Below, in pieces: positions 8,428 to 51,334 of a stretch of DNA of 64,000 bases (the stretch's first letter is position 1; each line of letters begins with the position of its first letter). Source of the stretch: a bacterium (GTDB lineage Archaea > Thermoplasmatota > E2 > JACPAO01 > JAHFTW01); contig JAZJZE010000001.1 in assembly GCA_040390065.1 (NCBI GenBank), positions 294,718-358,717 of the forward strand. Direction: 5' to 3'. A program made the translations under genes and the position numbers. Under the pieces are notes generated by a model. The model did no database searches and was not told the DNA's origin. It was given only the letters and a program-made list of their open reading frames with translations.

Positions 8428-8590
8428 GTGCGCCTGACGGGAATCGAACTCGTTCTGCGGCCCGGTGCTGCGCACCGGCCCGTCGCCAAGCCGCGGCTGC
8501 GCGTCGCGGCGGGCTGAACGGGTTCGCTTCCCAGCCAGTGCCCTGCCGCGTGGCGGCCGGCCGCTTCGCGGCGCCTTCGCCTGCGGGTAG
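8428..8590 (-). repeat. 162-bp insert at the tRNA-Gly 3' end (direct copy, mirror copy, hairpins)
   Basis: 8428-8455 matches 8590-8617 at 27/28; 8515-8532 is an inverted copy of the T-arm (17/18); GCCGCTTCGCGGC hairpin near 8560. Confidence 0.85.
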
Positions 8591-8661
8591 TGCGCCTGAC
8601 GGGAATCGAACCCGTTCAAGCAGCTTGGGAAGCTGCTGTCATACCATTAGACCACAGGCGC
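8591..8661 (-). tRNA. tRNA-Gly (CCC)
   Basis: 71-nt cloverleaf: GCGCCTG acceptor, GCAGC-TTCCCAA-GCTGC anticodon arm, ACGGG-TTCGATT-CCCGT T arm; CCA not encoded. Confidence 0.97.
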
Positions 8662-30680: not shown

Positions 30681-30971
30681 ATGGACGTACAACGCAGCCT
30701 GAGAACCGTCATCGCGACCGGCAAGGTCCTGATCGGAGCCGACCAAACCGCCAAGGCGGTGATGCAGGGGAAGGCCAAGATGGTCATCCTCTCGTCGAAC
30801 GCACCCAACGCCGAAGCCCTGCGCGCGGCAGCGGTCAAGGCGCGCGTGCCCGTCTACGCCTTCGAGGGCGGCGGCATGCAGCTCGGCCCCGCGTGCGGCA
30901 AGCCGTTCTCCATTTCGGCCCTGGCGATTCTCGAGCCGGGCGAATCCGACGTCATGCAACTCGGCAAGTAG
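30681..30971 (+). CDS. rpl30e: 50S ribosomal protein L30e
   Basis: TGKVLIG…LGPACGKPF…ILEPGESD. Confidence 0.96.
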   Translation: MDVQRSLRTVIATGKVLIGADQTAKAVMQGKAKMVILSSNAPNAEALRAAAVKARVPVYAFEGGGMQLGPACGKPFSISALAILEPGESDVMQLGK

Positions 30972-30991
30972 TTGGTTCCTCCACCTCCCGA

Positions 30992-31415
30992 CTGGAACAC
31001 CGATTCCACAGAACCTCGAGGCTGAAGGCTCAAGCGGCTCTGGGCCTGTTGCCTCGTGGATCGGCCAGAATTCCACAGATGCACTGCCACCGACGCTCGC
31101 CGTCAGCGCAGGAAGTTCAACTGGGAAATTCTGGGGGGCGCCAGTCGAGCGAAGGCGAAACCGGCTCCAGCGTGGCCCAGAGAATTTCTGTGAAATCTGT
31201 GTTTGCCCGAGCCTGGAACACAGATTCCACAGAACCTCGGAGCTCAAAGATCAACAGACTGTTGACAATTTGCCTCATGGATCGGCCAGAATTCCACAGA
31301 TGCACTGGCACCGACGCTCGCCGTCAGCGCAGGAAGTTCATCTGGGAAATTCTGGTGCCAGGGGATAACGATTGCTTCAGAGAGTTCTGCGAAATCTGTG
31401 TCAAGCCCGGGGCCC
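30992..31415. repeat. Two tandem ~200-221 bp nested-palindrome (MITE/REP-like) units
   Basis: Units start at 30992 and 31213; 86-bp core 31049-31134 vs 31270-31355 with 3 mismatches; terminal IR cacagattccacagaa / ttctgtgaaatctgtg. Confidence 0.88.
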
Positions 31416-31498
31416 GGCCCAACCCCAAGCCTCATGTGGACGATTCCTGTCGCATCACCGTAGGCGAAAGCCTGCGCCCTTCCCCGAGTTGACCCCCT

Positions 31499-31978
31499 TT
31501 GTCTGACCTTTCTCTCAACATGGAAGCCATCGGCCTCATCGCCGAAGCCGAGAAACGCCTGCGGGCCCGCATCAAGGACGCCGTCGACGAAGGCGAACGC
31601 ATCGTCTTCATCACCGAGAAGGGCCACCTCGGCCAAGCCCTCGGCAAGGAAGCAAAGAACCTCGCGATGATGCGCGAACTTCTCAAGAAGGACGTCAAGT
31701 TCGTCGAGTGGGACGAGGACAAGCAAGTCTTCATCCGCAACCTGTTCAAGCCGTTCGACGTCGCCTCCATCCGCATGGAAACGCTGACGGTCACGCCACC
31801 CGTGGACCCGAACAACCCGGATGCCCCGGCGCCGGAGCCCAAACTCAAGATCCGCGCCATCGTCGAGGTCGAAGCCAAGGACAAGGGCAAGGCCATCGGC
31901 AAGCAAGGCCGCAACATCGCCTCGATCCGGCACATCGCGAAGCGGCACCACGAAATCGATGAGGTCCAGGTCATCTGA
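31499..31978 (+). CDS. nusA: Archaeal transcription factor NusA (2 KH domains)
   Basis: GQALGKEAKN and KGKAIGKQGRNI KH loops; position after rpl30e. Confidence 0.93.
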   Translation: MSDLSLNMEAIGLIAEAEKRLRARIKDAVDEGERIVFITEKGHLGQALGKEAKNLAMMRELLKKDVKFVEWDEDKQVFIRNLFKPFDVASIRMETLTVTPPVDPNNPDAPAPEPKLKIRAIVEVEAKDKGKAIGKQGRNIASIRHIAKRHHEIDEVQVI

Positions 31979-32103
31979 TGCGCGCAGCGCCAGATGTACC
32001 CGCCTCATCGGTTTCAGCGAGCCGAGCAAAGCGATGGCGAGCGGACGCTGCCGCTGCGCTTGCGCGGCCGCCGAGGGAGATCGACGAAGTGCAAGTGATT
32101 TGA
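31979..32103 (+). repeat. 125-bp insert at the nusA 3' end (mirror copy, hairpins, synonymously recoded direct copy)
   Basis: 31991-32015 is an inverted copy of 31952-31977; 32077-32103 GAG ATC GAC GAA GTG CAA GTG ATT TGA encodes EIDEVQVI*, like the nusA end. Confidence 0.85.
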
Positions 32104-32558
32104 TGCAGCCCTCGTGGGCCGGCCGAATCCGACTTCGAACCCGGTGGGGCGTCGTGATTCTTCCAGCGTTGGTCGTTGTGCTCGGCCTGGTCGTGCTCGT
32201 GGTGAGGCCAGGCGCGGCGGCGCTGCAGTTGATGGCAATGGACCTGGTCGTCGCCGGCCTGTTCGTCTTCCTCATGTGGTGGAAGGGCTCGGCGCGCATC
32301 CAATTGGACGCGTCAGGCATTCTCCGTTCGCAGTGGCTTCGTCGCGACCAGTTGATTCCGTGGACAAGCGTCGCGCGCATCGAGCCGATACTGATGCGAG
32401 GCATCTACCTCAACCTCACATTCCATGGCCAGAATCCGCCCGTGTCGCTGAATGTTCCGTTCTTCCGTTGCTCGCTAGCTGATCGGCAGCGCCTGCTTCA
32501 GGCTTGTGAGGAGAAGGGCTTGGCCGAGCGCTTCGACGAGTGGAACATCCGCTTCTGA
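32103..32558 (+). CDS. Small membrane protein, 2 TM plus PH-like domain
   Basis: Two TM helices then IQLDASGI…IPWTSVARI pattern; ATG overlaps the recoded nusA-like TGA. Confidence 0.65.
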   Translation: MQPSWAGRIRLRTRWGVVILPALVVVLGLVVLVVRPGAAALQLMAMDLVVAGLFVFLMWWKGSARIQLDASGILRSQWLRRDQLIPWTSVARIEPILMRGIYLNLTFHGQNPPVSLNVPFFRCSLADRQRLLQACEEKGLAERFDEWNIRF

Positions 32559-32568
32559 CTGTTCCAGA

Positions 32569-32770
32569 GCGGGCAGGCGGCGGGCATTTGGGGCCGTGCC
32601 GCATCGCCCGTATGCTCGTCGGCTCCACGCGATGCGTGATGGCCTAGTTGTCGCAGAGGTCCGCGAAAACAGGAAATTTTACCCACCTCCCCGACGGGGA
32701 AGTCGTCTCCTTCGTCGTGGAGCTCACGAGCATACCAACGGGGCGAAGTTCCCTCCATCCAGCCGCCCGC
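32569..32770. repeat. Long imperfect inverted repeat (~200 bp stem-loop)
   Basis: tcgcccg-tatgctcgt-cg-gctccacg (32604-32629) pairs with cgtggagc-tc-acgagcatac-caa-cggggcga (32716-32746); outer gcgggc / gcccgc arms. Confidence 0.7.
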
Positions 32771-32790
32771 GTTCCTCTCCCAGAAGTCTT

Positions 32791-33021
32791 ATGCCCGTGC
32801 AAGCCGAATCCAAGGGCGTGCACTTGAAGGTCGTCCTGGAGCCGAGTGAGGAGGGTGGCTACACCGTCACCGTCCCTGCCCTTCCAGGATGCATCAGTGA
32901 AGGAAACACGAAAGCGGCGGCCCTGCGCAACATCAAGCAAGCCGTCGCGCTATACCTCCAAGACGTCCCTGCAGACGCGAACCATTCGCGCAGGGCCGTC
33001 ATCGAGGAGATTGTCGTTTGA
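32791..33021 (+). CDS. hicB: HicB-family antitoxin (short form)
   Basis: EEGGYTVTVPALPGCISEGNT…ALRNIKQAVALYL. Confidence 0.92.
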   Translation: MPVQAESKGVHLKVVLEPSEEGGYTVTVPALPGCISEGNTKAAALRNIKQAVALYLQDVPADANHSRRAVIEEIVV

Positions 33022-33323
33022 AGGTCCCGTCCCTGGATTACGACCGTCTGGTCCGGGCGCTGCAGCGTGATGGATGGGTCGTCGTCCGGCAACGCGGCAG
33101 CCACATCCGGATGCAACGGCAGCTTGGCGATGACGTGCAGAAGTTGACCGTGCCGGCGCACAAGCCTTTGAAGCGGTCGACGCTTGCTGCAATACTCAAG
33201 GCGGCGGACTTGGGTGTCGAGCGCCTTCGCGGATTGCTCCGAATCGGTGCGTTTCTGGCTCACGACTTCTTCTTGAACCGCGCCGCGTCCTCGCTCCCTT
33301 TCGTCGCATTTCCCGCACTGTAG
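33018..33323 (+). CDS. hicA: HicA-family mRNA interferase toxin (C-terminus extended into fdh)
   Basis: GWVVVRQRGSHIRM…LTVPAH…LKRSTLAAILK; TTGA overlap with hicB. Confidence 0.88.
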   Translation: MKVPSLDYDRLVRALQRDGWVVVRQRGSHIRMQRQLGDDVQKLTVPAHKPLKRSTLAAILKAADLGVERLRGLLRIGAFLAHDFFLNRAASSLPFVAFPAL

Positions 33324-50577: not shown

Positions 50578-50656
50578 GGGGGAATGCCCGGGCGTGCTGC
50601 CAGCCACGCTCGGCCAAAGGGGAGCTCCACCATGAGGTTGACGCAACCTCGCGAGC

Positions 50657-51015
50657 CCGCAGCGTTCCTCGCCGCTTCGCGGCATCGGCAAACCTGTCCT
50701 GGCACCTACGACGTGCTCGCTTCGCTCGCGGTCTCAGTGCACAGGACAGGATTTGGCGCTGCGGCCGCGCAGGCGCAGCCGCAGCGTTCCTCGCCGCTTC
50801 GCGGCATCGGCAAACCCTGCCCATGCACCTGTCTGTCGCCGGCGGGCGCTCGGCGCCGCCGATGCGACGCGACTTAGTGCACAGGACAGGATTTGGCGCT
50901 GCGGCCGCGCAGGCGCAGCCGCAGCGTTCCTCGCCGCTTCGCGGCATCGGCAAACCCTGCCCATGCACCTGTCTGTCGCCGGCGGGCGCTAGGCGCCGCC
51001 GATGCGACGCGACTT
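50657..51015 (-). repeat. Tandem 140-bp units at the tRNA-Leu 3' end (2 full, 1 diverged)
   Basis: 50736-50875 and 50876-51015 differ by 1 nt; each has agtgcacaggacaggatttg (tRNA 3' end), a degenerate inverted copy and a GCCGCTTCGCGGC hairpin. Confidence 0.92.
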
Positions 51016-51017
51016 AG

Positions 51018-51099
51018 TGCACAGGACAGGATTTGAACCTGCGAACCACAAAGGAGAAGGCCCTGAACCTTCCGTCGTTGGCCACTTGACTACCTGTGC
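51018..51099 (-). tRNA. tRNA-Leu (CAG)
   Basis: 82-nt type II cloverleaf: GCACAGG acceptor, GAAGG-TTCAGGG-CCTTC, variable arm, GCAGG-TTCAAAT-CCTGT; follows rpoD. Confidence 0.96.
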
Positions 51100-51176
51100 A
51101 TTTGGGGAAAAGGGCCAGCCCTTGCGGAGGGCTGCATCCGGCCGACTTCAGGTTGGCACTTGAGGGTTGCGCCCAG

Positions 51177-51295
51177 GCGAACCACAAAGGGGAAGGCCGT
51201 AGCCCTCGGGCCATCAGGTCCGAGGGCGCGACGTGGACGCCGCGAAGCGGCGGCCCGGCCAACCTTCCGTCGTTGGCCACTTGACTACCTGTGCA
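51177..51295 (-). pseudogene. Partial tRNA-Leu copy with the anticodon replaced by a 62-nt hairpin insert and no T arm
   Basis: 51261-51295 is identical to 51066-51100; 51177-51198 matches 51041-51062 at 21/22. Confidence 0.8.
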
Positions 51296-51334
51296 GACGG
51301 TTGGGAAGAGGGGAGAAGTGGATTCCCTTGAACC

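Follow-up and report, generated by a model that had tools for sequence, protein, structure and literature searches.

Why should an archaeal gene carry its last codons a second time, a short way past its own stop codon and spelled almost throughout in different synonymous codons? The question is raised by the nusA locus in a 64,000-nt stretch of contig JAZJZE010000001.1 (assembly GCA_040390065.1, positions 294,718 to 358,717), hereafter the window, to which all positions refer unless another contig is named. The genome under study, of the phylum Thermoplasmatota, is labelled G000 and is 89% complete; other G numbers denote genomes of relatives. All the genomes are metagenome assemblies with completeness between 65 and 98%, and counts across relatives share ancestry and are not independent. 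The reading that we favour, with moderate confidence, is that the nusA duplication represents one insertion of a non-autonomous mobile mini-element that replaces the end of the gene at which it lands.

The gene (31499–31978, plus strand) encodes a 159-residue NusA of the archaeal type with two KH domains (Pfam KH_5, 2e-13, and KH_2), and relatives of it are present in 36 of the 41 genomes. Its C-terminus, EIDEVQVI followed by the stop, is written GAA ATC GAT GAG GTC CAG GTC ATC TGA at 31952–31978, while the second copy, at 32077–32103, reads GAG ATC GAC GAA GTG CAA GTG ATT TGA, i.e. the same peptide and the same stop. The copies differ at seven nucleotides (in order A/G, T/C, G/A, C/G, G/A, C/G and C/T), all at third codon positions and all synonymous. 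Re-reading and a pattern search confirmed these letters, and with them the statement of the first-pass annotation that seven of the eight codons are synonymously recoded. The degenerate pattern for EIDEVQVI, stop and TG was matched only twice in the 64-kb window (31952–31980 and 32077–32105) and never in 100 shuffled sequences; no further copy of the nusA end was found with it in the window.

A chimeric assembly of two strains, which would have refuted the first-pass reading of this pair, is improbable, given how many genome assemblies made independently of one another show this layout. In addition, a contig of sequencing run X1, produced by a different assembler, spans both copies and agrees with 31700–32400 with 0 differences (X1 possibly comes from the same sample, so that this is a check of the assembly and not an independent observation). 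No joint skipping the 125 nt from copy to copy was seen in this contig across 31700–32400, the comparison being made on contigs and not on raw reads. Of the sequencing runs searched, X1 alone contains the stretch, the small shares in others being fragments of relatives; the RNA run X15 matches 31700–31752 only, and the metagenome contigs yield nine nusA loci, too few to compare populations.

The 98 nt that separate the two copies are highly ordered. The unit begins with the gene end itself, T1 (31952–31978, the last 8 nusA codons and the stop, delimited by the pattern search and by folds), which forms the 5′ arm of a hairpin called P1. There follow an apical loop with a mini-hairpin (31979–31990) and the 3′ arm of P1, antiT (31991–32015), which is complementary to T1 and ends 1 nt before the motif AGCGA. 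The latter opens the core module (32016–32076), composed of AGCGA (32016–32020), the hairpin P2 (32021–32038), the string GAGCGGAC (32039–32046) and the long hairpin P3 (32047–32076), with a G-run preceding T2. T2 (32077–32103), the second copy of the nusA end, is unpaired in the predicted folds; all these parts are on the plus strand. The folds agree with the earlier proposal that 31991–32015 pairs with the functional end (31952–31976), and they place the stop codon in the apical part of a long hairpin. The outer stem of P3 is degenerate in the nusA copy when compared with that of G004. Across 71 units, the P1 hairpin ends 0–1 nt before AGCGA in 61, and an apex made of GA, a short GC hairpin and GA is found in 48. 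The T1:antiT hairpin tracks the synonymous codon choice of each species, and the copied stretch of the gene end varies from about 10 to 66 nt without being identical between copies. What lies between the copies, described at first as only about 100 bp of hairpins, is not a remnant but a conserved three-hairpin unit, present in many copies at other gene ends of this genome and of the family.

Both the fold and its conservation are strand-specific. On the plus strand, the nusA unit folds to −76.4 kcal/mol as RNA (z −3.64 against shuffled sequences) and to −42.6 kcal/mol as DNA (z −3.45), while the minus strand is weaker (z −2.52). A covariance model of the core, R1, was built from 11 units. When 90 copies were aligned to R1, all 18 model pairs showed change on both sides (compensatory change), and 93.9% of the cells in paired columns were paired, as opposed to 68.1% in shuffled alignments and 34–46% when the partners were slid by 1–3 columns, it being understood that an alignment of this kind is biased towards the structure of the model. 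G-T oppositions outnumber A-C oppositions by 56 to 12 in the core, and by 82 to 6 in the P1 hairpin, which is outside the R1 model. Because a palindrome acting as duplex would be symmetric in this respect, it is the unit's own strand that folds as a single strand, either of RNA or of DNA. The core is under structural selection, on one strand. Mini-hairpins with a GNA triloop, such as GCGAAGC, are described as exceptionally stable when they consist of DNA.

An ATG overlaps the TGA at both nusA copies. On the nusA stop it opens a 41-residue ORF across the unit (31978–32103, plus strand), which is in a frame other than that of nusA, ends in the second copy and is probably not a gene; its counterpart in G004 differs chiefly in the module part. 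The spacings between copies (94, 97, 104, 106, 111, 125, 128, 191, 225 nt and others) cover all three frames, and T2 is therefore not read in frame with the gene. A small coupled gene, read-through or a frameshift could be ruled out on these spacings and on the frame being kept nowhere else, and the ORF and the TGATG overlap appear incidental. At the second copy, the ATG begins an ORF of 151 residues outside the unit (32103–32558, plus strand), with a hydrophobic N-terminal part and no Pfam family. The overlap of the distal stop with this next gene, which had suggested a translationally coupled operon, is present here, but it is not conserved, as in G004 the distal copy precedes other, unalignable DNA. 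None of the nusA loci of 21 relatives has an element-free arrangement of nusA, TGATG and membrane gene.

Similar units are found at many other gene ends of the genome. With an E-value cut-off of 1, R1 yielded 25 matches; 11 had E below 1e-5, and the best was the nusA core (73.2 bits). All the protein-gene contexts of the matches are 3′ ends, namely those of nusA, secY (two units), a SIS-domain gene, GAPDH (in tandem), EF-2 and the thermosome gene. Among the tRNA genes, tRNA-Leu(CAG) (three units in tandem), tRNA-Arg, tRNA-Glu and tRNA-Thr have matches at the 3′ end; tRNA-Arg(TCG) and tRNA-Leu(CAA) have them at the 5′ end, in antisense orientation relative to the tRNA. Since R1 misses related subfamilies, the tRNA ends were tested directly, by searching for a copy of the terminal 20 nt (up to two mismatches) within 600 nt beyond the same end. 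In this test, 24 of the 52 tRNA genes carried a duplication of their own end (18 cases at 3′ and 8 at 5′ ends), against 1 and 0 in the wrong-side controls. For 22 of these 26 tRNA units, 10 or more of the terminal 20 nt pair with spacer sequence, and the three-hairpin layout is visible.

Some of these tRNA units lie in the window. Three tandem units (50580–51035, minus strand) follow tRNA-Leu(CAG) (gene 51017–51099); two of them, of 140 nt, are 99% alike and the third is diverged, each being headed by a copy of the tRNA 3′ end. A duplicate of the 5′ end of the same gene, with a hairpin-rich spacer, is found beyond that end (51100–51296, plus strand, the unit being antisense to the tRNA), and is itself interrupted by a further hairpin insert. 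Duplications at both ends were also observed for tRNA-Gln(TTG) (contig C2, 30076–30403). After tRNA-Gly(CCC) (gene 8590–8661) there is a unit of a variant subfamily (8428–8589, minus strand), without an R1 match, which ends in a copy of the tRNA 3′ end (8428–8450).

On contig C4 (105117–117860), a tyrosine integrase gene comes after tRNA-Lys(CTT), and about 12.5 kb further on there is a 19-nt copy of the tRNA 3′ end. This copy doubles as the T1 of a unit, whose antiT, module and T2 come directly after it. The island is thus inserted between tRNA-Lys(CTT) and the T1 of the unit by means of the same 19 nt, and such gene ends are therefore also ordinary attachment sites. Distant second copies of a gene end were found neither within 40 kb after the thermosome gene nor in the approximately 3 kb of contig left after EF-2.

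The distribution of the units among relatives is narrow and patchy. At an E-value of 0.001, R1 found matches in 21 of 24 relatives from the same family and in none of 16 genomes outside it; at 1e-8, in a class-wide sample, it found them in 23 of 31 genomes of the family and in none of 119 genomes from nine other families. Among the genomes sampled, the unit family is limited to one family of uncultured Thermoplasmatota. Within 250 nt past the nusA stop, a core of the form GA[GA]CGGAC is present in 12 of 20 relatives of the same family, in several of them in tandem. The nusA locus of G022 (L023/L073) has as many as four copies of the gene end, all encoding IDEVQVV and the stop; its four tandem units alternate two types of core, the one with GAGCGGAC and one with a different long hairpin. 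In G026, which belongs to another family of the same order, the same arrangement was observed after nusA (L036) and secY (L157), i.e. gene end, inverted copy, a core consisting of a short GC hairpin, and a second gene end; this core is different and shorter and has no R1 match, so that the principle reaches beyond the R1 subfamily.

Within the genus, the core is present at the nusA site of G004, G007, G005, G011, G012 and G001, and it is not present there in G010, G006, G008 and G002. The secY site is filled in G000, G001, G002, G004, G006 and G007 and empty in G005, G008, G011 and G012; where it is filled, the copied stretch varies with the species (about 66, 47, 48 and 27 nt), which points to separate insertions. 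Tandem and nested units occur, with arrays of up to four. Many T2 copies are truncated or decayed, for instance at nusA of G013 and at secY of G001 and G017, and T2 is absent after nusA in G005, G012, G017 and G001. When G000 and G004 are compared at nusA, T1 and T2 are each identical at 26 of 27 positions and the core at 79%, while past T2 the two genomes are unalignable (46% identity). The suggestion that the locus bears the footprint of an insertion at a protein-coding 3′ end is supported.

The two copies of a gene end look like ends taken from working alleles. In the 219 codons that could be compared between 22 pairs of copies at protein-gene ends, 78 codon differences are synonymous and 14 are not, whereas random placement of the same differences gave 72.9 ± 3.9 non-synonymous ones, with a minimum of 58 in 5000 trials; related genomes among these pairs are not independent, and the figure overstates the number of events. 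Third positions account for 81 of the 105 nucleotide differences in the same pairs, and 9 of the 14 non-synonymous codons, on our reading, sit at the left edge of the copy, where the “codon” is module sequence. The synonymous set includes changes of Arg CGA/CGC to AGA/AGG and of Leu CTG to TTG as well as swaps of stop codons, and at both G026 loci (nusA and secY) a Ser codon is switched between TCG and AGC. Selection for maximal recoding was considered and ruled out: the proportion is seven of eight codons at nusA but 8/22, 6/15 and 3/9 elsewhere, and ordinary saturated synonymous divergence is therefore sufficient.

At nusA, each copy is 1–2 nt from functional nusA ends of other genomes of the family, in line with the claim of protein-level selection on both. 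T2 is 2 nt from the functional ends of G007, G010, G017 and G024. T1, in turn, is 1 nt from that of G004 and 2 nt from that of G023, which belongs to another genus, but 4–7 nt from those of all congeners except G004. On these distances, the distal copy looks like the displaced resident end. The interpretation of the pair as a displaced original end plus the end of a diverged allele is thus supported at nusA, where the distal copy resembles the resident, but which copy is the resident varies between loci, the proximal one being closer to an element-free congener at secY.

As for pairing, the duplex with the loop and antiT is stronger for T1 than for T2 in 15 of 21 units, with 2 ties (a symmetric test); at nusA the values are −37.7 and −20.8 kcal/mol, respectively. 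Of 56 paired sites at which the copies differ, T2 could pair at 12, a count which favours T1 by construction. Retention of T2 for pairing with antiT was ruled out on these 12 of 56 differing sites and on the weaker duplexes. In tandem arrays each copy matches the antiT that comes after it; the repeating block is therefore T, loop, antiT and core, with the last T left over.

On the favoured reading, the element would be about 100–140 nt long, situated at the outer ends of conserved genes, and would consist of T′, loop, antiT, AGCGA, P2, GAGCGGAC, P3 and the G-run, where T′ is the element's own copy of the last 10–66 nt of the target gene and antiT the inverted copy that pairs with it. The block would enter just where the resident end begins, on its left edge; T′ (now T1) would then become the working end, and the resident end (T2), displaced about 100 nt downstream, would fall out of use. 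The almost purely synonymous differences between T1 and T2 would exist because both come from working alleles of diverged lineages. The unit would presumably move as a single strand (of DNA, or via RNA), find its target through the homology of the T′/antiT hairpin to the gene end, and spread between relatives. A single-stranded circle of the block could fold into three hairpins around one junction, and an exchange of one strand at the base of the T′:antiT stem, followed by replication, would yield exactly the order observed. The antisense orientation of the units at tRNA 5′ ends is more easily reconciled with a DNA element than with a cis-acting RNA of the gene. Tentatively, and with considerably less confidence than in the insertion itself, the units can be imagined as self-guided mobile elements, i.e. 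three-hairpin single-stranded circles of DNA or RNA, of about 100–140 nt, carrying both a guide (antiT) and a replacement (T′). The enzyme, of the host or of an element, would then recognize the conserved junction (AGCGA, GAGCGGAC and the G-run) rather than the target sequence, which would make the choice of target programmable through the nucleic acid of the element itself.

Several observations weigh against the insertion of a gene-end-replacing element. Compared with the element-free congener G008, the proximal copy of the secY end shows 4 differences and the distal one 10, and where partial third copies exist, it is T1 that they resemble rather than T2. T2 is almost identical in G000 and G004 (26/27), whereas the third positions of nusA are 68% identical between them; if the insertion predates the split of the two genomes, T2 is better conserved than neutral DNA (about 4e-4 by a binomial estimate), and this excess of conservation would imply either that the insertions are recent or independent, or that T2 has a function. 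Such a function might be that of a right-hand homology arm during transfer of the unit between relatives by recombination. Moreover, the filled and empty sites that were contrasted are those of congeners, not of near-identical strain pairs, and the contigs of the sequencing runs showed neither an excised circle nor its junction. As to the enzyme, there was no match in the 89% complete G000 to the Y1 transposase (PF01797), although the controls matched, nor to Cas1, reverse transcriptase (RVT_1), the IS110 transposase or the TnpB zinc ribbon, and none of its six tyrosine recombinases adjoins a unit. Viral carriers are not evident either, since 80 viral contigs, from at least 120 IMG/VR motif matches, contained no convincing copy (best R1 score 24 bits). 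Finally, the proposed mechanism leaves unexplained how a unit gains a new target.

Among the alternatives, the one that most deserves attention, although we think it unlikely, is that the units are host-beneficial cis-acting RNA structures of gene 3′ ends (a terminator, a stabilizer or a protein-binding site) in GC-rich genomes without U-rich terminators, and that they have been spread by homologous recombination, in which the gene would act as the left arm and T2, a by-product, as the right arm. This would account for the position of most units just after a gene in the sense orientation, for the folded strand being the sense strand there, for the occupation of the nusA site in most genera of the family, for the coincidence of T2 with the end of synteny with G004 and for the fact that no transposase was found. 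However, in 8 of the 52 tRNA genes the duplication is found on the 5′ side and the unit runs antisense to the gene, and at tRNA 3′ ends the hairpin would be expected to compete with the fold of the tRNA. Furthermore, no T-run comes after the hairpins, no Rfam family is matched, and neither tandem arrays of up to four units nor empty sites in congeners are expected of a 3′ structure that is needed. The antisense units also count against the quite improbable idea of a removable insert, either intron-like and removed from RNA or reversible and removed from DNA, which would join the gene body to T2 so that T1 and T2 serve in turn, because splicing of RNA makes no sense for units antisense to tRNAs. 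Such an insert would explain both the conservation of T2 between G000 and G004 and the almost purely synonymous nature of the differences, switches within six-fold degenerate codon families included; a three-way junction does bring together the unit's two boundaries, and taking out T1 through the G-run should leave the reading frame intact. Yet many T2 copies are truncated, decayed or lost, Rfam gave no known ribozyme or intron signature, and the contigs show no skipping joint.

The C4 island, in which a classical element uses the same T site at tRNA-Lys(CTT), and the six tyrosine recombinases of the genome lend some colour to a further reading, according to which the units are scars of viruses or plasmids that were inserted at these gene ends by tyrosine integrases, each with a gene end of its own, and that then suffered an internal deletion sparing only the att-proximal ends with their shared conserved sequence. 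This seems to us distinctly unlikely. Random deletions would neither place antiT within 0–1 nt of AGCGA in 61 of 71 units nor produce a core under structural selection, and the at least 30 different targets in one genome would call for as many integrase specificities. In addition, the C4 island shows no module at its own ends, and no long version (module, genes and T2) was found within 40 kb after the thermosome gene or in the approximately 3 kb after EF-2. The least probable explanation, to which we assign hardly any weight, is that of an artefact or chance (a chimeric assembly or a fortuitous repeat) or else of a real 41-residue gene translationally coupled to nusA. It is true that the genome is a metagenome assembly and that an ATG on the nusA stop opens an ORF ending in the second copy; but the shuffled sequences gave no chance match in 100 trials, the contig from the second assembler spans both copies, the layout is found in dozens of independent assemblies, and the spacings fall in all three frames, so that no frame is kept across units.

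Some features of the neighbourhood of nusA should also be mentioned. The ORFs upstream resemble, by eye only, RNA polymerase subunit A″ and ribosomal protein L30e. The spacer of lower GC content between the L30e-like ORF and nusA contains a direct repeat of 143 nt (30992–31134 and 31213–31355; 87% identity, spacing 221), of which two weaker copies are found on contig C5 of the same genome, and whose sequence is unrelated to the gene-end units. A weak, sub-threshold Rfam match of the C/D-box type (E 0.16) is located on the minus strand at 31223–31283. In archaea the genes of ribosomal proteins S12 and S7 usually follow nusA; here they are not next after it, and the gene after nusA differs between close relatives, so that synteny breaks at the nusA 3′ flank. 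A toxin–antitoxin-like pair (32506–33323) is situated downstream of the membrane ORF, consisting of an ORF that matches HicA (33018–33323; Pfam 2e-16) and of an overlapping ORF upstream of it, ending at 33021, which is HicB-like by eye only. Both this pair and the fact that the G004 flank cannot be aligned suggest a variable island in the DNA after T2.

If the favoured reading is correct, tiny elements would occupy the ends of nearly half of the tRNA genes and of core genes such as nusA, secY, EF-2, thermosome and GAPDH in a lineage of uncultured Thermoplasmatota from soil and groundwater, and would do so without harm to their targets, since every element comes with a gene end of its own. Inteins, introns and integrative elements that carry an att site are three solutions to the problem of landing safely in an essential gene, and the units would add a fourth. 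The combination of guide and mimic with no known transposase points to an undescribed mechanism of targeting. For annotation, it would account for recurrent “pseudo” tRNA fragments and recoded C-terminal duplicates, and would flag gene ends at which synteny breaks.

No description of such units was found in our literature searches; one could exist in supplements or beyond the reach of the searches. Nor did a cmscan of 30900–32400 against Rfam at E up to 10 return anything on the unit. It is not an intrinsic terminator, as there is a hairpin but no T-run from 32016 onward, and no bulge-helix-bulge motif is evident in the folds, which were not complemented by a dedicated search. It also differs from a miniature inverted-repeat transposable element, in that the inverted pair T1/antiT is on one side only and there is no short target-site duplication of fixed length, and from a diversity-generating retroelement, as the differences are not confined to template adenines and G000 has no RVT_1 match. 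Casposons have a Cas1 integrase, terminal inverted repeats and a 14–15 bp duplication, and in archaea they target the 3′ end of EF-2 and tRNA-Leu, i.e. the same sort of conserved, “safe” genes; for the units, however, no Cas1 match was obtained in G000. In fungal mitochondria, duplications of gene ends, including recoded C-terminal duplicates, occur beside mobile endonuclease genes, and small mobile double-hairpin elements are present as well, but here there is no endonuclease gene, and layout and lineage are different.

The closest parallels are found among elements that integrate at gene ends or as single strands. Integrative elements at the 3′ ends of tRNA and protein genes likewise supply a replacement end and leave the displaced one downstream as a direct repeat, and it is because the insert supplies this replacement that the gene stays intact, there as here. 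Direct repeats of the gene end flank the nusA insert, as they do in attL/attR elements; in contrast with these, only 98 nt lie between the repeats, without an integrase or other genes, and the units have an inverted copy of the target, a conserved three-hairpin core and many target specificities within one sequence family. The strand-specific, hairpin-rich, short non-coding units, present in multiple extragenic copies and often just after genes, recall the IS200/IS605 single-strand transposons and the REP/BIME-RAYT (REPIN) elements as outlined in PMC5027513 and PMC3333891. Here, however, the copy number is in the tens and not in the hundreds, and no Y1 (HUH) transposase was found in G000. In IS200/IS605, a guide within the element pairs with the cleavage or target site and so sets the point of insertion. 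That guide is of 4 nt, whereas the putative guide of the present units is of 10–58 nt, and the unit contains the target copied in full.

Integration of folded single-stranded DNA, as outlined for phage CTX at dif and for the attC cassettes of integrons (PMC3442271, PMC4792948), comes near to the mechanism proposed above. In those systems, too, an inverted copy allows one strand to fold into a hairpin mimicking the double-stranded target, and the order direct copy, inverted copy, rest of element, direct copy, which for the CTX and attC products we deduce, is the one found at nusA. The “rest of the element”, on the other hand, amounts here to about 65 nt, dozens of unrelated gene ends serve as targets instead of one dif or attI site, and no partner of the Xer or IntI type is tied to the units. 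The unit is thus one that shares single features with each of the systems compared and lacks at least one defining feature of each of those that could be tested, and it looks like an undescribed kind of small mobile element.

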